Shown here: positions 2,717-27,716 of the stretch, piece by piece | Numbering within the stretch: position 1 is the first letter of the stretch | Layout of the letters: every line of letters begins with the position of its first letter | Assembly: GCA_965199855.1 (NCBI GenBank) | Contig: OZ241326.1 | Span: forward strand, 2,367,486 to 2,431,485 | Reading direction: 5' to 3' | Source of the DNA: a bacterium | GTDB lineage: Bacteria > UBA8248 | DNA length: 64,000 nt | Translations under genes and position numbers: made by a program | Notes under the pieces: model-generated | Told to the model about the DNA's origin: nothing | What the model saw: only the letters and a program-made list of their open reading frames with translations | Databases searched by the model: none

Positions 2717-2938
2717 ACGCGGCGGCTAGGACGCGGACGGCCTGCCGGCTTCCCCGTCGCGGGGAACTCCGTCGCATTGTAGGCGCCCGGGGAAAATCCG
2801 GCAACCGCCATGGCGTCCGAGAAGGGAACGGCGCGCGAGCCGGGCGTCCACTTGAAGGGACGCATGAAAAATACGTAACCTTGCCGGAAGGCAACGCGCG
2901 AGCCCGAACTCCCGAGAAGAGGAAGCCGCAAGCCGACT

Positions 2939-4375
2939 ATGAGCGAGAAGAACTCCCCGCAAGACCCCGGTTCGGTCGGCCTGACGAGGACGCGGACGAT
3001 AACGCTGCCCGATCCGTTCAGGACGGATTCGGGCGAAACGCTGCCCGAAGTCCGCGTCGCCTACGAGACATACGGCGAGCTCTCCCCCGGCGGTGACAAC
3101 GCCGTCCTCGTCATCCACGCCTTGACGGGCGACGCGCACGCGGCGGGCTTCCACAGCGAGGCTGATCCGCGCCCCGGCTGGTGGGATCCGATGATCGGCC
3201 CCGGCAAGGCCATCGACACCGAAAAATACTTCGTCGTCTCCTCCAACAACCTGGGGGGATGCGCGGGCACGACGGGGCCCGGCTCCATAAATCCCGCCAC
3301 GGGGAAGCCCTACAACATGCGCTTCCCCGTCATCACGGTGGAGGACACGGTTCGAGCGCACAGGCTGCTCCTCGAGCGCCTGGGGGTAAAGCGCCTCAGG
3401 ACGGTCATCGGCGGCTCCCTCGCCGGGATGCAGACCCTGGAGTGGGGTCTGCGCTACGGGGACTTCTGCGACTCCGTCATCCCGGTCGCGGCCGCCGCCC
3501 GCCTGGATCCCATGGGAATCGCGTGGGGCAAAATCGCCCGCAGGGCCATTACGGCGGACGCCGCCTGGAAAAGCGGCGACTACGCCCCCGGCCAGGGGCC
3601 GCGCAAGGGCCTGAGCGCGGCGCGGATGCTGGCCCACGTCACCTACCTGAGCCGGGGAATCATGTGGGAGAAATTCGGGCGCGAGACGCGGGACAAGGAC
3701 GCGATGCTGGCGGACATCGCCTCCCGCTTCGAGGTGGAGAGCTATCTCGACCACCAGGGCGAGAAATTCGTCGATCGATTCGACGCCAACTCGTATCTGT
3801 ATATCTCCCGCATGATGGACCTCTACGACGCCTCGCTGGGCTTCGAGAGCCTGGAAGCCTCCCTCTCCCGCCTGAGCGCCAAGTGCATGCTCGTGTGCTT
3901 CATCTCCGACTGGCTCTTCCCGCCGGAGAGAAGCATTGAGATGGCCGAGGCGCTGCGAAAGCTCGGGCGTGAGGTGGAGCTGCACACCGTGGAATCCACC
4001 TACGGTCACGACGCCTTTCTGGTGCAATACGACAAGCTCACCGAGATCGTCGGCGGCTTTCTGGAAAGGCTCGAAAGGGGCGGGGCGATCGGCATCGACG
4101 CGACCCCCGTCCCCCCGGGGTGCCGCCGCCTCGTTCTCTCTTTTCCCGGCGACTTGGCGGACAAACCCGTTTTGTGGGAACTCGGCGAGAGATACTCGTT
4201 TTCCGTCAACGTGGCGAGAAGCGAGCTCGACGCCCGCTCGGGCTGGCAGGTATGCGAATTCCAAGGAGACGCGGAGGAAATCGCGCGCGCGGCGGCGGAA
4301 CTCAGAAGCATGGGCGTCTGGGTCGATGCGGGAGGGCACGACGCCATCGACCACGATCGCGCCGAAGTGGTATAA
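2939..4375 (+). CDS. metX: homoserine O-acetyltransferase MetX with a ~90-aa C-terminal extension domain
   Basis: VAYETYGELSPGGDNAVLVIHALTGDAHAAG...GGSLAGMQTLEW is the classic MetX alpha/beta-hydrolase core. At 478 aa it exceeds the usual ~370-400 aa; the extra tail is ...LVLSFPGDLADKPVLWELGERYSFSVNVARSEL... Confidence 0.85.
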   Translation: MSEKNSPQDPGSVGLTRTRTITLPDPFRTDSGETLPEVRVAYETYGELSPGGDNAVLVIHALTGDAHAAGFHSEADPRPGWWDPMIGPGKAIDTEKYFVVSSNNLGGCAGTTGPGSINPATGKPYNMRFPVITVEDTVRAHRLLLERLGVKRLRTVIGGSLAGMQTLEWGLRYGDFCDSVIPVAAAARLDPMGIAWGKIARRAITADAAWKSGDYAPGQGPRKGLSAARMLAHVTYLSRGIMWEKFGRETRDKDAMLADIASRFEVESYLDHQGEKFVDRFDANSYLYISRMMDLYDASLGFESLEASLSRLSAKCMLVCFISDWLFPPERSIEMAEALRKLGREVELHTVESTYGHDAFLVQYDKLTEIVGGFLERLERGGAIGIDATPVPPGCRRLVLSFPGDLADKPVLWELGERYSFSVNVARSELDARSGWQVCEFQGDAEEIARAAAELRSMGVWVDAGGHDAIDHDRAEVV

Positions 4376-4450
4376 ATCAGGGAGCGCGGCCCGGAACATA
4401 AAGATCGCTTTCTTTTCTCAAACCCGCAAACACAAGACGGAGACGATCCG

Positions 4451-5083
4451 ATGAGCGCACTGAAAGAACCCATCGTCGTGGTGAAATACTCGGATTACAC
4501 GTGACCGTTCTGCTACGTCGCCACCGTGGGTGGCACGCCCGTGATCGAGGAAGACTCCGACGTGGTCGTCGAATGGGTCAGCTGGGAGGGCAGACCCCCC
4601 GGGCAGGATTTCGCCGGCTACACGCCCGAGCAGAAAAAAGAGAACTACGAGAACCACCACAAGCCTCTCGCCGAGAAATACGGCGTGCCGCTCCGCCCGG
4701 CGGGGGCGGACTACCGCACGACGGGCCTCCACATGGCCACCTACTACGCCCGGGACAAGGGAAAATTCAGGGAATTCCGGGATCGCTGCTACAAGGCGCG
4801 CTGGGTGGACGACCTCGACCTCGAGGACGCGGAGACCATCGCCGCGCTCGGCGAGGAGGTCGGCCTGGCCGGGCAGGAAATCAAGGCCGTCATCGCCGAG
4901 GGGCGCTACATCGGCGCCCTGCGCAGCCAGCGCGCCCAGGGCAAGGGTCTGGGCATTTTCGGAATCCCCACCTTCGTGGTGGAGGGCAAGCTCTTCTGGG
5001 GCAAGGACGTCATCGACGACGTGCGCGCCGAGGTCGCCCGCGTCCGGCGGGAGCGGCTCGAAAAGCAAGAGGAAGAGGGCTAG
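4451..5083 (+). CDS. DsbA-like thiol-disulfide oxidoreductase selenoprotein (UPFC active site), 210 aa including Sec
   Basis: The ATG at 4451 gives MSALKEPIVVVKYSDYT-TGA(4502-4504)-PFCYVATVGG..., continuing in frame into track ORF 4526..5083. The TGA sits exactly at the first Cys of the DsbA CPFC motif. A GC hairpin gccacc-gtg-ggtggc (4520-4534) lies 15 nt downstream of the TGA, consistent with a bacterial SECIS. The GIFGIPTFVV DsbA motif is present. Confidence 0.7.
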
Positions 5084-5219
5084 CCGCTCCCTCCTTGCGC
5101 TCAGGGGCCGTCCCCGCGCGAAGCAGGCGCCGCCTCGGCGGGCTGCGCCCGCCTCACCCTTTCAGCACTGGTTCCGCAGGCCGGAGCTCCCGGCCCCGAC
5201 ATTTCGAGGAGAGAACCCG

Positions 5220-6812
5220 ATGGCGCAATTCGACGGCATCATCATCGGCGCGGGCCACAACGGCCTGGTGTGCGCGGCCTATCTCGCGCGGGCGGGGCTG
5301 AAGGTCGCCGTCCTCGAAAACGAACCCGAAATCGGCGGCGGATCAAGCACGAAGGAATTTCTCCTGCCAGGCTACCGCTCGAACATGCACGCGAATTTCT
5401 TCATCGGCCTCGACGATTTTCCCATCGTCAAGGATTTGGAGCTGAACAAACACGGCTTCAGGTGGCTTACGCCGGACGCCCAGCACGCCGCGCTCTATCG
5501 GGACGGCACGGCGATTCTCCTCCATCGGGATCCGGAGAAAAGCGCCGCTTCCATCTCGAAATTCTCCCGAAAGGACGCTGAATCCTACGTCTATCTTCAC
5601 AGGCGATTCGCCGTGGAGCTCGCCCCCCTCATGCGCAGCTTCCTGTTTCATCCGCCGCTGCCTCCGGGAGAAATCGCCGAGCGGATGGAGAGCGAAGCGG
5701 GTCGGGAGGTTCTGGGCTTCGCGAAGACGTCCATCTTCGAGGCTATCGAATCCCACTTCGAGCATCCCAAGATGCGCGCGCTTTTCTTCCTCTTCTCCCA
5801 CGCCATCACGGTGGAGGACGCGCCGGGCACGGGCATTTTTCTCCCGAGTCTGTTCTCCACCCACACGACGCTCGGCCTTCCGGTGGGAGGCGCCCTCCAG
5901 TTGCCGCTGGCGCTCGAGCGCATCATCCTCCAGAATGGCGGCGTCGTCCTCAGAAACAGCCGCGTCCGCGAAGTGACGCGCGAAGCCGGCCGCGCGGCGG
6001 GCGTCGCGCTCGAAAACGGAGAGAGGATGACGGCGGGGCGGTTCGTCGCCTCCAGCCTCAACGCGCCGGCGTCCATCCGGATGGCGGGAGAGGACGCCTT
6101 CCCCGACGAGGTGAACGAGAAGGCGCGAAACTGGGACTGGGGCTTCCACTCCCTCAGCACGCTGCATCTCGCCCTGGCCGAGCCTCCGAAATACGCGGCG
6201 GAGGACTTCGACCCGGACGTGGTCCGCGCCTACAACGTCATCTTCGGCGCGGATTCGGGCGAGGAGATGGCCGAAAACGCGCAGGAGCGCAAGAGCGGCG
6301 CCCTGCCCTCGCGCCCTATGGGCAACGGCGCGTGCAACAGCCGGCACGACCCTTCCTACGCGCCCGCCGACGGGCACGTCGCCTTCTGGTGGCCGGGCGC
6401 GCCCTACGACCTCAGGGACGGCGGCCCCGAAAAATGGGATGAGATAAAGGAGGAATACGCCGAGCGTCTGGTGGGCGCGTGGCGAGGCTACGCCCCGAAC
6501 CTCACGCCCGGGAACATTCGCGCGGCGAAGCTCTACACCCCGCTCGACGTGGAGCGCGGGAACGGGAACATGGTGCGCGGCGGCGTGCGCATGGGCGCCT
6601 ATATTCCCGAGCAGCTGGGCGTCAACAGGCCCCATCCCCTGCTCTCCGGCATGAGGACGCCGCTGGAAGGGTTTTATCTGTGCAGTTCGAGCTGCCAGGG
6701 GGGCGGCCTGAACGGAGCGCCCGGCTACAACGCGGCGGGCGTCATCGCGGACGACCAGGGCGTGGAGAAGTGGTGGGAGCCGCTGCCCGCGCCCGCGTCG
6801 CCCGCGCTCTAG
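5220..6812 (+). CDS. CrtI/phytoene-desaturase-family FAD-dependent oxidoreductase
   Basis: N-terminal Rossmann fold MAQFDGIIIGAGHNGLVCAAYLARAGLKVAVLE; 530 aa with amine-oxidase/CrtI-like architecture. Confidence 0.75.
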   Translation: MAQFDGIIIGAGHNGLVCAAYLARAGLKVAVLENEPEIGGGSSTKEFLLPGYRSNMHANFFIGLDDFPIVKDLELNKHGFRWLTPDAQHAALYRDGTAILLHRDPEKSAASISKFSRKDAESYVYLHRRFAVELAPLMRSFLFHPPLPPGEIAERMESEAGREVLGFAKTSIFEAIESHFEHPKMRALFFLFSHAITVEDAPGTGIFLPSLFSTHTTLGLPVGGALQLPLALERIILQNGGVVLRNSRVREVTREAGRAAGVALENGERMTAGRFVASSLNAPASIRMAGEDAFPDEVNEKARNWDWGFHSLSTLHLALAEPPKYAAEDFDPDVVRAYNVIFGADSGEEMAENAQERKSGALPSRPMGNGACNSRHDPSYAPADGHVAFWWPGAPYDLRDGGPEKWDEIKEEYAERLVGAWRGYAPNLTPGNIRAAKLYTPLDVERGNGNMVRGGVRMGAYIPEQLGVNRPHPLLSGMRTPLEGFYLCSSSCQGGGLNGAPGYNAAGVIADDQGVEKWWEPLPAPASPAL

Positions 6813-20182: not shown

Positions 20183-20707
20183 ATGAAGCGAATCCGCATC
20201 CCCGTCATCGCCGCCGCCCTGGCGGCCGCCCTGTGGGCGATACATCCGGCGACCTCCTCGGGGCTCGGGCCCGGCGCGCCCGCCCCCGAACTGAAGGGCG
20301 GCCCCTGGCTGGGCGTCGAGAAGCCCCTTCAACTGAAGGAGCTGCGCGGCAAGGTCGTGCTTCTCGACATGTGGACGTTCGGCTGAATCAACTGCGTGCG
20401 GGAGATTCCCGCGCTGCGCTCGTGGCACGAGCGCTACGGGGACAAGGGGCTGGTCGTCATCGGAAACCACGCGCCCGAGTTCGGCTTCGAGAAGAGCAGG
20501 GCGAACGTGGAGAAGGCCATCGCCAAGCTCGGCATCGCCTACCCCGTTGTGATGGACAACGGGTTCGTCAACTGGAACGCCTACGGCAACCGCTACTGGC
20601 CGACGAAATACCTGATCGACAAGAAGGGAATCGTGCGCTTCAAGGCGATTGGCGAGGGGGGCCACGAGCGCGCCGAGGCGATGATCAAGAAGCTGCTCGC
20701 CGAGTGA
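20183..20707 (+). CDS. periplasmic thioredoxin-like (TlpA/redoxin-type) selenoprotein with a UINC active site, 174 aa including Sec
   Basis: Signal peptide [19 protein letters not shown], then ...[15 protein letters not shown](20384-20386)[10 protein letters not shown]... The TGA joins track ORFs 20087..20386 and 20396..20707, which share one frame. It aligns with TlpA WCxPCRxEMP as U-x-x-C. A hairpin gcggga-gat-tcccgc (20398-20412) lies 11 nt after the TGA. Confidence 0.65.
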
Positions 20708-21432: not shown

Positions 21433-21507
21433 TCCGGCGTAGCTCAACGGCAGAGCAATCGGCTGTTAACCGATGGGTTGTAGGTTCGAATCCTACCGCC
21501 GGAGCCA
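21433..21507 (+). tRNA. tRNA-Asn (anticodon GTT)
   Basis: Acceptor tccggcg/cgccgga, anticodon stem atcgg/ccgat with loop ctGTTaa, T-arm gtagg-ttcgaat-cctac, discriminator G, encoded CCA. Confidence 0.85.
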
Positions 21508-21577
21508 TGGGGGAGGGGGGCAACGGGCCGCCCATTGCAAGTTCTTGACTCCAAGACCGGCGAAAGGAGGCTTGACC

Positions 21578-23455
21578 GTGCTCTTTGCGGAAGCCAAAGA
21601 TAGGATCCGGAGCTGGATTCGCCGCCTTATCAAGTGGCTGACCAAGCCCGAATATCCCACAGAGGCACCCGAACCAATTCCATCGAACGAGGCAAGGCCG
21701 GAGACAACCCACATACTGGCGTCTCCCCCAACTACGGCATCGCCAAAGTCAGAACCGGCCTCTCCTTCCGACCCAGGCGAAGGCACCGACGCGGAACCCA
21801 AGACAACGGACGATTCAGCAAGCAAAGAAGAGCCCAAGAAAGAACCGCGCAAGATAGGACCGAGACGTATCAAGCCGGACAACAATCGCCAAAAACCAAA
21901 TCGCCCCGCACAACTCACCCGCCCCTTCACTCCCAGGGCGGAGTTGCTCTGCCGCCAAGCTCGGGGTTCATCCTGGGAGTTAATTCTGTCCGTTCCCGAA
22001 GAATGCGGCATTGTGAAAATACAACATGACAACAACCCCTTGTCAGTCGACGAAAACGGCGAATGTCGCCCGTCATCATTCTCCGGCACCCTGAAAGTTG
22101 AATACAGCGACGGAAAAACTGACGAGATTATCCCATTGGTCTGCGACAAGACGCCGCTGGTTTTTAAAATGCGGAACGGCTGGCAAGGGTCTGGCCGCAA
22201 AATTAGCGGAATTACTCGTGGGCACTTCATTGTTTTCACGCCTGCTGAATGGAAGCGAACGGGTCGCGTTCCGGTAGAAGCCGAGAACTGCGTGGACGCT
22301 GACTTCCGGGCGCACTACTTCCATGCGCGCAAGAACGACGCAAACGATGAAATTGGCGGATTTAAGGAATATGAAGTCCCGTTGACCCCAACCGGATTCG
22401 AGTTGGAAGGTACTAGAATTTTCGATGATTCTGAAGATGGGGAACTATTCGTTGATACAGTTCCAAGGGTGAAGCCCGCGTCCGGCATCGTCTGGGCGCG
22501 CGTGGGCGAAGAGCGGCAGAGAGGCTGGTCTGGAGAAAATTTCAGACCCGATGACAAATCTCTCAAGAAAGTTCTGAATGGCCGCCAGAGGCGATTTTAT
22601 GTCCGCGTCTATGACGACGCGCCCAAGTTGATGGACAGCGGCGAGTTCCGCTATTACGCGGATCTGCAAGATATTCAGGTGAATGGCGTATCGTATTCGC
22701 AGGACATGCTGTTGCTCCCCACGTCGGACGGGCATTCGCCAACAAGACTGCAATTCATTGCCCGGAATGGAGAGCTGATCTCCCAAGATCGGCTGGAATT
22801 GAAAGGAAACAACCCTCACGCGGCCATTACGCCAGATGGCGTTTTGACAATAGCCCCACACCCGGATGGCGATGAAATAACCTTAGTCTTAAAAGCCAAT
22901 ACAAGTAGCGTGGCCGTCAAGCTCCACTTGCCGCGCGTCTGGTGGAGGCTTGAGCGATCAGGAGAGGAGCCAAGCAGGTGGGGCGACCAACCCCTAAATA
23001 TGACGCGCGATGAGTTTCGAGATCGGGCCAATAAGAGCACCGTGATAAAATTGCGATTGCCTTCACGCATCAAATCTGCCGATGTGGGATTTGGTGATAA
23101 TCTGGACCGGAGACTTCCCATAGGGGACGGATTGCCACTTGGGAACTTTATCGATTATACGGAAATCGACAATCCATCAAGTGAAGAGGTCGAACTGCGA
23201 ATTCGATGCAATAGTGAAAGGCTAACTCTAATCCAACTTGCCGCTGACTTACCTGCCCCTACAAAGAAGCCTCTAACAAACAATATGCCAGACACTTGTC
23301 CAAGCGGCAACAAGGGATTCAGCTGCGGCGAATTGCGGAAGGCCAATCTCACAGCCGCCGATGCGAAACGCTTGCAATTACGTATCGACAGGCGACGCCG
23401 CAGCGAACACAATAGCAATATAGACAGGCTCATGGAGATTGGAAACGATGCCTGA
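21578..23455 (+). CDS. island protein A: 625-aa protein of unknown function (N-terminal amphipathic helix, Pro/Thr/Ser/Glu-rich linker, ~480-aa beta-rich C-terminal region)
   Basis: The track ORF starts inside the tRNA; the likely true start is GTG 21578, with GGAGG 8 nt upstream. The protein runs VLFAEAKDRIRSWIRRLIKWLTKPEY..., then a PTS/E-rich segment, then ...GHFIVFTPAEWKRTG... No nuclease, methylase, ATPase or other catalytic motif was recognised by eye. It overlaps gene B by 8 nt. Confidence 0.6.
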   Translation: MLFAEAKDRIRSWIRRLIKWLTKPEYPTEAPEPIPSNEARPETTHILASPPTTASPKSEPASPSDPGEGTDAEPKTTDDSASKEEPKKEPRKIGPRRIKPDNNRQKPNRPAQLTRPFTPRAELLCRQARGSSWELILSVPEECGIVKIQHDNNPLSVDENGECRPSSFSGTLKVEYSDGKTDEIIPLVCDKTPLVFKMRNGWQGSGRKISGITRGHFIVFTPAEWKRTGRVPVEAENCVDADFRAHYFHARKNDANDEIGGFKEYEVPLTPTGFELEGTRIFDDSEDGELFVDTVPRVKPASGIVWARVGEERQRGWSGENFRPDDKSLKKVLNGRQRRFYVRVYDDAPKLMDSGEFRYYADLQDIQVNGVSYSQDMLLLPTSDGHSPTRLQFIARNGELISQDRLELKGNNPHAAITPDGVLTIAPHPDGDEITLVLKANTSSVAVKLHLPRVWWRLERSGEEPSRWGDQPLNMTRDEFRDRANKSTVIKLRLPSRIKSADVGFGDNLDRRLPIGDGLPLGNFIDYTEIDNPSSEEVELRIRCNSERLTLIQLAADLPAPTKKPLTNNMPDTCPSGNKGFSCGELRKANLTAADAKRLQLRIDRRRRSEHNSNIDRLMEIGNDA

Positions 23456-26400
23456 AACTCGTGACATTGAGAGATGGGTTGATACGATTGGTGCTCGCTA
23501 CGAAAATTATTTGAAAACCTCGTTTTACTTCAAGGACTCGAAACTCCGTGAATCGTTTCAACATGCGTTACAGGGTGGCCGCCTGCTGAAAGGGCCTTTT
23601 CCCGAACCGGCGCGCGACTTCAAAAAAGGCGTAGACGCGAGGCAACTGGCGAAAGAATGTTTTCCTGACAGGGGCGGCGCTCTACTTCCGGCATTACGGA
23701 AAGGCGCTTTGTATGTCCATCAAGAGCGCGCCGTGCGTTGTACTCACACAGACCAGCGGAACATCGTGGTCGCCACCGGTACCGCCAGCGGCAAGACGGA
23801 GAGTTTTCTCTACCCGATTCTGTTCGAGTTGTACCGCCAATACTTGGCGGGAGAACTCAGCGAGCCCGGCGTGCGGGCCATGATCCTGTATCCGATGAAC
23901 GCGCTCGCCAACGATCAAAGAGAACGCCTTGGCGAAATTTGCGAGCAGCTACGCAAGGAGGGTTCAGATTTTGCCCCCATTTTCGGACAGTACATCGGAC
24001 AAACACCCGAAGATCAAAGAGACCGTCGGCGTAACGCCTCTACTCGGGAAGAGGAACGCCTGCCCGGCGAGTTGGTTTTCCGGGAAGAGATGCGGAACAA
24101 TCCGCCGCATATCCTGCTGACCAATTATTCCATGCTGGAATACCTTCTTATTCGTCCGAGCGACAGCCCGCTTTTCGACGTAGACCGAGGCAAACACTGG
24201 CAATTCATCGTGCTTGATGAAGCTCACCAGTACCGGGGCGCCAAAGGGATGGAGATGGGCATGTTAATCCGGCGTCTCAAGCAACGGTTGCGCGATGGAG
24301 GGCGCGAAGATCGTTTCCGCTGCATCGCCACCAGCGCGACCATCGCCACCGGCGAAGGCGAAGAAGACAAACAGGTCGTCGCGAAATTCGCCGAGGAACT
24401 CTTTGCCGAGCCTTTTCGGACATCCGGCATCATTTTGGGAGAACACGAACAACAGTCACTCAAAAAGGAGCCGCGTCGCTTCCATGCGTTCGCGCGCGCC
24501 TTGGAAGGGGCTTTTTTGCTCCATGATGACGGTGAGGATGCGGTCATCCTCAATCGCAAGAGAGAGGTTGGGTGCCGCGCCGAGCCCTTGGAAATCGCGT
24601 TATGCCGGGAATGCGGACAACACTATTACGTCGGCCGGGAAAATGATGGCAAGTTGAAAGAAGCGGTGCGAGATCCCAGTCATCCGAAATTTGGCGTGGA
24701 TTATTACCTGCCATTGGAAAGCGATAATGCCGCTTCTCATGTCTTATGCCGATGCTGCGGCCAACTCTCCGCCGACGGGTCTGCTTGCGATTGCGGCGAC
24801 AGCGCCTCAATTCTCGTCAAGAAGTGCGAATCTCATAAAGAACATCCGGATCACCTGAAGAAATGCGAAGCCTGCGGCTATAGCCGCGGCGGCATCGGCG
24901 ACCCTGTTCAGGAAATCGTGCACGGCTCCGACGGCCCCAACACCGTCATCGCGACCGCCCTTCACGAGTTGCTACCGGAAAGCAGGCGCAAGGTGCTGGC
25001 GTTCGCCGACAGTCGGCAGGAGGCCGCGTTCTTCGCCTGGTATGCTCAGGACTCCTATACGGAGGTACGCGACCGCAATTTGATGTTGCGCGCTTTGAAG
25101 GCTGGGGCAATCGATTCTGAAGGACTGTCCATTGACGACCTCAAAAACCGACTGTTCAAACAGTGGGAACAGTCTGGTCTGTTTGAGAGAGCGGATACCA
25201 GGGAAAGCAAGGACCGAAAGGTGCTGACGGCAATCCTCGGAGAAGCGTTGACGGACGAGAAGAGGCTGTCCTTAAGTGGAGTCGGTTTGGTCAGGTGGTT
25301 CGTCAAAATCCCGGACGACTTGAGACCGCCGGCCTCAATGCTGGAGCCGCCTTGGAATCTAACGGATGAAGAAGCGCGCCGCCTTCTCGCATATCTTTTA
25401 GACGAGTGGCGTGTGCGCTACGCCTTGGCTTTGCCGGACGGTGCAGGGACCCCGTTATGGAACGACGTATCACCCCTGCGGCGGCAACAGGCTTACGGTC
25501 TGGGCACCCCCGGCAAAAGAAAAAACATCGCAGAATGGGGCAGCTCCCAATCCGCAATCGTTGGTCACTTCCTGCGCCGGCTCCTTATGCGAAATGGACA
25601 GTCCGGCAATGACGACCATTCACAATCGATCATGCTGATGAAGGATGTATGGAGCGCATTGCGCGAGCGGGATAAAAAATATGGCCAAAAAGCCGACCAA
25701 ATTCTTTCGTCCGCTAACACAAACGGGACATTCCGCCTCAACTCGCGCTGGCTGCGGACCAAGCTCGCCGAGCCATCTGAAATTTGGGAGTGCGACACGT
25801 GCGCAAGCCTGAGCACCCACAACATTCACAACATCTGTCCTCGAAACGGATGCCCCGGAAATCTGTCGCCTGCCGGCCAATCACGGCTTGAAGAAAACCA
25901 CTATCGAATCCTTTACGAAAAACCCGGCCTGCCACCCACGCTATGCGCTGAAGAACATACGGCTCAAATCGAAAGCAGCGAGGCGCGCCAGAGACAGGAT
26001 CGCTTCAAAAGCGGACAAATACACCTCCTCAGTTCCTCAACCACGTTTGAGGTTGGCGTCGACTTGGGCGATCTCGAGGTCGTATTCCTCCGCAACGTGC
26101 CGCCGGAGCCGTTCAACTATACCCAGCGCGTCGGGAGGGCGGGACGCCGAGAAACGCCGGGATTGGCGCTGACCTACTGCCGCCGCAACCCACATGACTT
26201 GTACCACTACGAAGACCCGGAAAAGCGCGTGATAGAGGGAAAGGTGCAACCCCCAAGGCTCCGGATGACCAACGACAAAATCATCTCCCGGCACATGGCC
26301 GCCGTCGCTCTGTCCGCATTTTTCAAGAATGAGGGAAACGAGGAACGCTTCAGGAATGTCGAATCCTTCATCGGCGATTGGGAGAATCCTCGCGCCGTTT

Positions 26401-27716
26401 CGGACCTGAAGCAGTTTTGCGAAAACAACGAGGCGTTGAAGAATTCGCTACTCCGGAGCGTGCCGGAAGCCATGCGCGAAACAACCGGACTCAACAGCAA
26501 TGATTGGATTAAAATCATCGCCGGCCCGGACAGCCGCCTTGACCGAGCCGAGAAAGAAGTTTCCGACGACTATCAGCGCATGGAAGCGCTTGAAAAAGAG
26601 TACTCGGACAACAGCAAATATAGCGACGCGAAACGTATCAAGCAACGGAGGGATACCATCGCTAACGAACAAACCTTGACCTTCCTCTCACGCAAAGCCG
26701 TAATTCCCAAATATGGCTTTCCGGTTGACGTGGTGGAACTCGATACCCGGGAACTCGATACCCGGCCGCAAAACAGAAGTTCGGCAAGAGTATCGTTGCA
26801 AAGAGACCTGTCTCAAGCCATTGCCGAATATGCGCCGGGCGGTAAAGTCGTGGCGAACAAGCAAGAGTGGGAATCATGCGGTGTAAAAGTAATTTCCGGA
26901 AAGCAATTTCCGGTCAAGCGTTACGCTTACGACGATGCCCGCTATTTTCAGCAATGTGATGAAGAGGGCAATCTTCCAAACAGCAGAAGCAGAAGATACC
27001 TTTCTCCGGTCTTCGGTTTCGTGACACCGCTATTTGAGAAACCCAAGAAGCCGCGGGGACGAGCGCAACGCCTATACACAACACGACCGTTTTTTCCGGG
27101 TTTTGATGAAGAACCGGAATCCAAGGACCTGTTCGGGATTACGGTAACAAAAGCGCAACCGGGAAGCTTGGTCATCCTGTGCGAGGGGCGGAATCAGAAA
27201 GGGTTCTATATTTGCCGCACTTGCGGAAGCCACATGACGAAGCCAGCGAGCGCGCACAAGACGCCGGCAGGATCCAAATGTACCGAGAGATTAGAGAAAT
27301 TTTCGCTCGGGCACGAGTTGGTTACGGATGTAGTGCGCCTGCAATTTTCAGACTTGGGCGACCAGTGGGACGCTTACTCCCTCGCTTACGCCATACAGCT
27401 GGGCGCGTCGAAAACAATGGATGTGCCGGACACGGACTTGAACGTCACTATCACTGGCGACAAAGCATCGGACGAGACGGCGATTGTCTTATATGACAAT
27501 GTTCCCGGCGGTGCCGGTCTGGTGGCGCAGTTGGAACACGAGGGTATATTTCGAGAAATGCTCGGCAATGCCCGAGAACGGGTACAAGGCGGATGTGGCT
27601 GTGACTCAAGTTGCTACGGTTGTCTGCGCAGCTACCGCAACCAGTTCGCGCACCCGCACTTGAATCGCAAAAGAGCTCAAGCCTTTTTACCCGCCGTAGG
27701 CGTCGGGGCGGAATAG
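23448..27716 (+). CDS. island protein B: large DExH-box SF2 helicase with a Zn-ribbon insertion and C-terminal DUF1998/MZB Cys4 domain (DruE/MrfA/DrmA-like)
   Basis: The track start at 23439 is TTG; ATG 23448 gives MPETRDIERW... Motif I VVATGTASGKTESF, Ia ILYPMNALANDQ, II VLDEAHQY, III ATSATI, VI QRVGRAGRRETPG. An insertion between the RecA-like halves carries four CxxC pairs (LCRECGQHYY..., CRCCGQ, CDCGD, CEACGY). The C-terminus CRTCGSH...C..GGCGCDSSCYGCLRSYRNQFAHPHL matches the DUF1998 signature. Confidence 0.85.
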   Translation: MPETRDIERWVDTIGARYENYLKTSFYFKDSKLRESFQHALQGGRLLKGPFPEPARDFKKGVDARQLAKECFPDRGGALLPALRKGALYVHQERAVRCTHTDQRNIVVATGTASGKTESFLYPILFELYRQYLAGELSEPGVRAMILYPMNALANDQRERLGEICEQLRKEGSDFAPIFGQYIGQTPEDQRDRRRNASTREEERLPGELVFREEMRNNPPHILLTNYSMLEYLLIRPSDSPLFDVDRGKHWQFIVLDEAHQYRGAKGMEMGMLIRRLKQRLRDGGREDRFRCIATSATIATGEGEEDKQVVAKFAEELFAEPFRTSGIILGEHEQQSLKKEPRRFHAFARALEGAFLLHDDGEDAVILNRKREVGCRAEPLEIALCRECGQHYYVGRENDGKLKEAVRDPSHPKFGVDYYLPLESDNAASHVLCRCCGQLSADGSACDCGDSASILVKKCESHKEHPDHLKKCEACGYSRGGIGDPVQEIVHGSDGPNTVIATALHELLPESRRKVLAFADSRQEAAFFAWYAQDSYTEVRDRNLMLRALKAGAIDSEGLSIDDLKNRLFKQWEQSGLFERADTRESKDRKVLTAILGEALTDEKRLSLSGVGLVRWFVKIPDDLRPPASMLEPPWNLTDEEARRLLAYLLDEWRVRYALALPDGAGTPLWNDVSPLRRQQAYGLGTPGKRKNIAEWGSSQSAIVGHFLRRLLMRNGQSGNDDHSQSIMLMKDVWSALRERDKKYGQKADQILSSANTNGTFRLNSRWLRTKLAEPSEIWECDTCASLSTHNIHNICPRNGCPGNLSPAGQSRLEENHYRILYEKPGLPPTLCAEEHTAQIESSEARQRQDRFKSGQIHLLSSSTTFEVGVDLGDLEVVFLRNVPPEPFNYTQRVGRAGRRETPGLALTYCRRNPHDLYHYEDPEKRVIEGKVQPPRLRMTNDKIISRHMAAVALSAFFKNEGNEERFRNVESFIGDWENPRAVSDLKQFCENNEALKNSLLRSVPEAMRETTGLNSNDWIKIIAGPDSRLDRAEKEVSDDYQRMEALEKEYSDNSKYSDAKRIKQRRDTIANEQTLTFLSRKAVIPKYGFPVDVVELDTRELDTRPQNRSSARVSLQRDLSQAIAEYAPGGKVVANKQEWESCGVKVISGKQFPVKRYAYDDARYFQQCDEEGNLPNSRSRRYLSPVFGFVTPLFEKPKKPRGRAQRLYTTRPFFPGFDEEPESKDLFGITVTKAQPGSLVILCEGRNQKGFYICRTCGSHMTKPASAHKTPAGSKCTERLEKFSLGHELVTDVVRLQFSDLGDQWDAYSLAYAIQLGASKTMDVPDTDLNVTITGDKASDETAIVLYDNVPGGAGLVAQLEHEGIFREMLGNARERVQGGCGCDSSCYGCLRSYRNQFAHPHLNRKRAQAFLPAVGVGAE

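Follow-up and report, generated by a model that had tools for sequence, protein, structure and literature searches.

An in-frame TGA near the 5′ end of a predicted DsbA-like gene raises the question of whether this codon closes a short upstream frame or is decoded as selenocysteine (Sec) in the active site of the encoded protein. The gene lies on the forward strand at positions 4451-5083 of a 64,000-nucleotide stretch (the window) of contig OZ241326.1, which belongs to a bacterium of the UBA8248 lineage (assembly GCA_965199855.1). Sequence comparison argues with high confidence for Sec: the locus very probably encodes a cytoplasmic DsbA-like (FrnE-type) thiol-disulfide oxidoreductase of 210 residues, without a signal peptide, in which Sec at position 18 is the first residue of the redox motif. 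The assignment is based on the translation, on Pfam and on a structural model of an orthologue. A selenoprotein had been proposed at this site in an earlier note made from the DNA letters, and all of its coordinates (ATG at 4451, TGA at 4502-4504 and a stop codon ending at 5083) were borne out.

The frame opens at the ATG at 4451-4453, 8 nt downstream of a Shine-Dalgarno-like GGAG (4439-4442) read from the sequence, and ends at the TAG at 5081-5083. The 17 sense codons between the ATG and the TGA at 4502-4504 read MSALKEPIVVVKYSDYT. The TGA is codon 18 and stands in the context YSDYT-TGA-PFCYVAT, after which the frame continues as PFCYVATVGG onward to the TAG. In the read-through translation, the redox motif is U18-P-F-C21; the TGA occupies the N-terminal nucleophile position of this UxxC (CxxC) motif, and the TGC at 4511-4513 provides the resolving Cys (TGC or TGT in 33/33 aligned genes, described below). 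The truncation by gene callers that had been pointed out at the start is also seen: a mechanical list of open reading frames (ORFs) opens the gene at the GTG at 4526-4528, giving 185 aa, and nearly all database homologues are called at 173-192 aa, beginning at or just past the position of a hairpin. This GTG is Val26 of the full frame, forms the apical loop of the hairpin and is a false start in both the ORF list and the gene calls.

Conservation of the TGA and of the codons before it was studied at the protein and DNA levels. A search of 5.8 billion proteins gave 54 close clusters at 52-91% identity, with entries named after Nitrospinota, Nitrospinaceae, DsbA family protein or HCCA isomerase, among others. 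The closest orthologue, at 91% identity, is that of locus L001 (OZ251456.1); a look-up of the exact 185-aa sequence had no match on record. For the DNA comparison, 33 genomic loci were taken from GTDB representative genomes, of which 32 include the 5′ end; these 32 loci together with the window make up 33 aligned genes, and a tandem copy in locus L026 and the gene of locus L034 bring the total to 35, from metagenome-assembled genomes (MAGs) of Nitrospinota/UBA8248/Tectomicrobia. The TGA at codon 18 is invariant, being present in 33/33 aligned genes and in both of the added ones. The upstream 17 residues are conserved as M-x-x-L-x-E-P-I-V-V-V-K-Y-S-D-Y/F-T, and the similarity ends at the ATG. 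Variation in codons 2-17 of the 33 genes falls mainly on third positions (entropy per codon position 0.23/0.12/0.91), as it does in codons 29-60 (0.28/0.21/0.92), while codon periodicity is lacking in the 45 nt that precede the ATG (1.5/1.4/1.5). The orthologous loci keep a GGAG or GGAGG at an unchanged spacing from the ATG, within upstream sequence that is otherwise not conserved. The periodicity in codons 2-17, and its loss upstream of the ATG, therefore indicate that the 17 upstream codons are coding, a matter that the earlier note had left to the homologues. Codon 26 is GTG in 19/33 orthologues, the remaining 14 having GTC, GTT or GTA, and the truncated gene model is therefore without a conserved start.

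One full-length gene call was found among the relatives. The orthologue P0029 is the only protein match of 210 aa and carries W at the TGA position; its contig has TGA there, the protein being the product of a code-4 gene call. This call, made by the ENA pipeline at the AT-rich locus L034 (867-1499; ENA ERZ27292786 k119_1521670), shows how metagenome gene callers mis-handle Sec genes. The locus L026, from a deep-sea Nitrospinota MAG, contains tandem copies of the gene (2225-2860 and 2926-3560), both with the TGA and an identical hairpin.

The read-through protein matched the Pfam DSBA domain (PF01323) with an E-value of 4.3e-26 and 92.3 bits (gathering cut-off 25.6), over residues 10-194 and profile positions 2-189 of 191. 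Since the match starts at residue 10, the domain is incomplete without the N-terminal extension and U-P-F-C. In an AlphaFold model made for P0029, the full-length orthologue (pLDDT 91.6, pTM 0.86), position 18 lies between a strand at 8-14 (β1) and a helix at 19-33 (α1); the nucleophilic Cys of thioredoxin-fold CxxC proteins canonically sits between β1 and α1. When this model was compared with the PDB using Foldseek, FrnE ranked first (TMq 0.79-0.82, identity 22-23%), followed by HCCA isomerases, kappa-class glutathione transferases (GSTs), cytosolic DsbM and periplasmic DsbAs. FrnE was the best solved-structure match by sequence too (E 1e-11), with its CPWC aligned on U-P-F-C. The N terminus, MSALKEPIVVVKY, leads directly into β1 and has no hydrophobic leader and no signal peptide. 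The C terminus is a charged helix without Cys, RRERLEKQEEEG, and the last Cys of the protein lies no later than residue 113. In NCBIfam, nothing matched except an unrelated (seleno)lipoprotein model, weakly and below threshold (29.5 bits vs a cut-off of 190), and no curated NCBI model covered the selenoprotein clade in this search.

The position of the TGA was further compared with Cys-containing relatives. A profile-free scan that covered 1.84 billion cluster representatives revealed a wide gap between the selenoprotein clade (E ≤1e-31) and the next relatives (E ≥1e-24). The full-length Cys homologues inspected share 22-29% identity with the window protein. When 12 of them were aligned, 11 carried Cys at the Sec position, in CPFC, CPWC or CPYC/CPYS, and C21 was nearly invariant; together with the CPWC of FrnE, they agree with the original reading of the TGA as replacing the first Cys of CPFC. 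No Cys orthologue was present among the 54 close protein clusters or the 35 genes, every clade member found being the Sec form. Some distant homologues (P0062, P0063, P0065, P0073, P0081 and others) are 600-1200 aa long with four to seven separate DsbA-like domain matches each, and may be either DsbA proteins built of tandem repeats or the products of gene calls that run through several genes.

A stem-loop resembling a Sec insertion sequence (SECIS) element is located at 4516-4537 on the forward strand, within the coding sequence. Its upper stem is a perfect 6-bp inverted repeat, GCCACC (4520-4525) and GGTGGC (4529-4534), around a GUG loop (4526-4528); below it are a 1-nt bulge (4519) and a lower stem of 3 bp (4516-4518 with 4535-4537). 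The upper stem begins after a spacer of 15 nt (4505-4519) from the TGA, as the earlier note had it and as can be read directly at 4520-4534, and the distance from the UGA to the loop is 21 nt. The minimum free energy (MFE) of the whole stem-loop, including the lower stem below the bulge, is -11.8 kcal/mol. In the published consensus for bacterial SECIS (bSECIS) elements, the upper stem has 4-16 bp and the MFE is no higher than -7.5 kcal/mol; the apical loop measures 3-9 nt, lies 16-37 nt from the UGA and has a G among its first two nucleotides, with G or U usually coming next (PMC13188914). With its 3-nt loop starting G-U, 6-bp stem, 21-nt distance and MFE of -11.8 kcal/mol, the element lies within all of these published limits. 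The RNAalifold consensus of 28 distinct sequences returned the same structure, with no rival conserved fold in the 69 nt that follow the UGA. In the alignment, 95% of cells were paired, compared with 26-58% when the 3′ partners were slid. The SECIS of E. coli fdhF, which is experimentally characterised, is an intra-coding stem-loop directly 3′ of the UGA, with a loop that starts G-U and a bulged nucleotide in the 5′ arm. The candidate element described here shares the coding-region location 3′ of the UGA, the G-U loop start and the 5′-arm bulge, but is shorter (6+3 bp), with a 3-nt loop, and its bulged nucleotide varies (C, G or A).

A synonymous-site test was carried out on 32 distinct coding sequences, using 39 four-fold degenerate codon columns in which the amino acid is conserved. 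Third-base entropy was zero in four of these columns, and three of the four are the stem codons GCC24, ACC25 and GGT27. Stem codon 28 is GGC in 29/32 sequences, and one exception is GGT, which preserves the pair as G·U. The loop codon 26 (GTN), on the other hand, is free to vary (entropy 1.5). By a hypergeometric estimate, the chance of at least three of four invariant columns landing on the four stem codons is about 0.002. GGT is the rarest Gly codon elsewhere in these genes, and at codon 27 no other Gly codon would allow Watson-Crick pairing with the A of ACC; GGC would produce an A·C mismatch. The AT-rich gene of L034, in which codons are otherwise strongly A/T-ending, keeps GCCACC-GTA-GGTGGC intact. 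The hairpin appears to exceed chance by its conservation across the 35 genes, not by its thermodynamics. As a separate observation, an extra paralogue with 62% identity is present in a different genomic context in L030, L031 and L033 (2926-3576), where the last stem base is A (GGA) and the stem is shortened to 5 bp; the ORF directly downstream of the L030 paralogue looks, by eye, like an insertion sequence-type transposase and may be one.

Decoding of the UGA as Sec is plausible in this organism because its genetic code is standard, because the window contains a second UxxC gene, and because its relatives use Sec. TGA ends 30/48 other crude gene calls in the window, several of them full-length as judged by Pfam domains reaching the C terminus; since TGA ends most other genes, the code is standard and not reassigned. 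A systematic scan of the window for in-frame TGAs flanked by coding signal gave one further convincing case, at 20384; all other in-frame TGAs with a high GC content at third codon positions were rejected as shadow frames or gene junctions. The second gene, also on the forward strand, extends over 20183-20707 (ATG at 20183, stop at 20705-20707) and would encode a secreted ResA/TlpA-like redoxin with Pfam AhpC-TSA and Redoxin matches. Its in-frame TGA (20384-20386) lies in the motif MWTFG-U-INC and is followed, after 17 nt, by a hairpin at 20394-20417 with a 10-bp bulged stem and a GAU triloop (MFE -16.3 kcal/mol, z -3.97). Many homologues at 49-63% identity have MWTFGCINC, and a database entry that is 98% identical ends just past the TGA. 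This protein is probably a further member of selenoprotein families already known, the thiol-disulfide isomerase-like / redoxin UxxC ones. As for the relatives, the database BSepDB is limited to species with a Sec pathway, its ten most selenoprotein-rich organisms include three UBA8248 ("Nitrospinota") MAGs, and FO_M_Nitrospinota_01 is listed there with 54 selenoprotein genes (PMC13326102); the last-named MAG carries the orthologue L027. SelA and SelB COGs were found enriched in a set of sponge-symbiont bins that includes a Nitrospinae bin of 69.7% GC (PMC5649159).

Several observations weigh against the reading of 4451-5083 as a selenoprotein gene with its own SECIS. No tRNA-Sec was found in the 64-kb window, in which Rfam at gathering thresholds detected two tRNAs and ARAGORN a tRNA-Val and a tRNA-Asn, and two Pfam batches showed no SelA, SelB or SelD domains in the 20 larger window ORFs, though a 64-kb sample cannot settle the presence of sel genes either way. 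No compensatory base changes were seen in the stem, because it is invariant; shuffle controls are uninformative for the same reason, and the structural evidence therefore rests on synonymous-site conservation, which overlaps the strongly conserved peptide ATVGG. The G-U of the loop is fixed anyway by the Val codon. Folding z-scores against shuffled sequences were 0.54 (69 nt) and 0.06 (41 nt), unremarkable for GC-rich sequence, and those for short contexts, -1.88 (22 nt) and -2.12 (15 nt), are unpersuasive alone. Moreover, 4.9% of the 1437 TGA triplets in the window precede, at SECIS spacing, a hairpin with 6 or more perfectly paired bp and a small, G-first loop. No Rfam family was matched, and a permissive search of 4440-4640 gave chance snoRNA-like matches (E >3); Rfam searching does not capture bacterial SECIS elements. 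The missing covariation and the unremarkable z-scores also speak for an account in which Sec insertion is real but SelB is recruited by something other than 4516-4537, where conservation would reflect only the ATVGG peptide and codon preference, the SECIS being located elsewhere or non-canonical. A canonical SECIS is missing in 12.6% of BSepDB bacterial selenoprotein entries (PMC13326102). This account is nevertheless unlikely, as the invariant GGT27 opposes the codon preference at other conserved Gly codons, where T is rare, the stem codons remain G/C-ending in the AT-rich L034, the position and loop agree with the bSECIS model, and RNAalifold offers no competing conserved structure downstream of the UGA.

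The other alternatives concern the TGA itself. Were the true gene the 185-aa ORF from the GTG at 4526, as the mechanical ORF call has it and as public gene callers annotate nearly all homologues, then the 17 codons ahead of the TGA would belong to a 5′ leader or make up a short ORF that the TGA closes. This is extremely improbable: the product would be without strand β1 and the entire redox motif of the DSBA domain, the GTG itself is missing in 14/33 orthologues, and the upstream codons are in frame, with conserved amino acids, variable third positions and a conserved Shine-Dalgarno sequence and ATG preceding them. A lone in-frame stop in MAG-like sequence can be an error, and the TGA might accordingly be ascribed to sequencing or assembly, or to an inactivating mutation in a pseudogene. 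The chance of this is close to nil, and the idea is effectively refuted by the conservation data, the same TGA being present in 35 genes from independent assemblies with protein divergence up to about 40% and the downstream part of the gene still being under purifying selection. Read-through of the UGA could also insert a residue other than Sec, either by a reassigned code (Trp or Gly) or by near-cognate suppression (Trp, Cys, Arg); the ENA call of P0029 translates the codon as W, so that a code-4 model fits locally, and no Sec machinery is seen in the window. This too is very improbable. TGA terminates most Pfam-verified genes of the window, in keeping with a standard code, the codon falls exactly at the catalytic Cys position, as is characteristic of Sec but not of Trp or Gly, and a SECIS-like hairpin with constrained synonymous sites lies downstream; the relatives, in addition, are published Sec users (PMC13326102).

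With Sec at codon 18 as the preferred reading, a mechanism can be proposed in which Sec insertion, SelB binding to the hairpin, the redox direction and the physiological substrate are what we infer from the observed reading frame, domain, Sec/Cys alignment and conservation of the TGA and hairpin. Translation would begin at the ATG at 4451, downstream of the GGAG, and the stem-loop at 4516-4537 would recruit SelB·GTP·Sec-tRNA(Sec) to the UGA at 4502. With the G-U-N triloop beginning 21 nt past the UGA, Sec would be inserted in place of termination. The selenolate at the N terminus of helix α1 could then attack substrate disulfides or other oxidised thiols, and Cys21 would resolve the intermediate via a selenenylsulfide, as the CxxC chemistry of the DsbA/thioredoxin fold suggests.

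DsbA-like UxxC selenoproteins (PF01323, COG2761) entered the literature in 2005, with the study of the Sargasso Sea selenoproteome by Zhang, Fomenko & Gladyshev (PMC1088965). They have been reported in the cultured anaerobes Anaeromyxobacter, Desulfovibrio and Desulfotomaculum (PMC1794560) and are listed as "DsbA-like protein form 1" in reviews from 2022 and 2026 (PMC9312934, PMC13188914). Like the form 1 family, the window gene has PF01323, a UxxC motif with Sec first and a downstream SECIS-like hairpin with G in a small apical loop; it was assigned relative to form 1 members (e.g. NIP15863.1, AACY01178397) by domain and motif only. It differs in belonging to a tight Nitrospinota/UBA8248/Tectomicrobia group in which all members found are the Sec form.

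The closest structural relative, FrnE of Deinococcus radiodurans (5CNW, 5CO3, 5CP1, 5XWH), is the best match to the window protein by both sequence and fold and, like it, has no signal peptide. FrnE uses Cys (CPWC), whereas the window protein uses Sec (U-P-F-C). In D. radiodurans FrnE, moreover, an additional tail at the C terminus carries a second Cys pair; the residue mutated in the structure 5CP1 is C239. The second C-terminal pair is missing in the window protein, which is accordingly described as having an FrnE-like fold and is not classed as an FrnE orthologue. HCCA isomerases and kappa-class GSTs share the DsbA-like fold (TMq 0.73-0.80; 2imd, 3fz5, 3rpp), and JGI names some of the orthologues HCCA isomerase. 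Those enzymes are glutathione-dependent and are not known to use a CxxC dithiol. In the window protein the UxxC motif is complete, and the JGI label was therefore probably transferred on the strength of the shared fold.

As the DsbA-like UxxC selenoprotein family has been known since 2005, the gene at 4451-5083 is a matter of corrected annotation and not of new biology. BSepDB may already list it, and the current understanding of selenoproteins is unchanged by it. It goes slightly beyond the textbook case in the apparent lack of a Cys orthologue in its clade, its compact, sequence-frozen SECIS and its conserved linkage to a metX-like gene. The value for annotation is that the window gene and essentially every public homologue are called as a fragment of 173-192 aa without the active site, the alternative mis-annotation being the wrong genetic code, as in P0029, where W stands in place of Sec. 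This gene and the second UxxC gene (20183-20707) jointly point to the organism as a Sec user, in a clade reported to be among the most selenoprotein-rich bacteria. The candidate short SECIS (6+3 bp, 3-nt loop), with its clean synonymous constraint, could serve well as a test case for minimal SelB recognition outside Enterobacteria.

Directly upstream on the same strand, at 2939-4375, is a gene for a MetX-like homoserine O-acetyltransferase (an alpha/beta hydrolase; Pfam Abhydrolase_1) with a C-terminal NIL domain, which ends 75 nt before the ATG of the selenoprotein gene. A scan of 4200-5400 for promoters and terminators detected nothing, including no terminator-like site between the two genes, and co-transcription of the metX-like and selenoprotein genes is possible. 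The MetX-NIL gene is found directly upstream of the selenoprotein gene, on the same strand, in loci L001-L029; in most of these, an FAD-dependent oxidoreductase gene and then a convergent RidA gene follow downstream. The NIL domain is usually found on MetN ABC-transporter ATPases, and the MetX-NIL fusion may be a methionine-sensing module. The clade could be an obligately Sec-dependent FrnE-like lineage, distinct from the published DsbA-like selenoproteins and possibly with a dedicated role in sulfur/selenium amino-acid metabolism, although such a view is doubtful. An obligate-Sec lineage is suggested by the lack of a Cys orthologue among the sequences found and by the minimal triloop SECIS, frozen from AT-rich to GC-rich genes, and a sulfur/selenium amino-acid role, rather than general disulfide exchange, by the placement directly downstream of the MetX-NIL gene.

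Elsewhere in the window, a low-GC segment on the forward strand (21433-27716; GC 0.56-0.58 vs 0.65-0.71 elsewhere) begins at the tRNA-Asn gene at 21433-21507. It contains a 660-aa ORF (21473-23455) with no Pfam or PADLOC match, followed by a gene for a 1425-aa DEAD-box helicase with MZB/DUF1998 that matches the Druantia DruE models (PADLOC E 3e-154). The segment has the appearance of a Druantia-type defence island that integrated at a tRNA gene.

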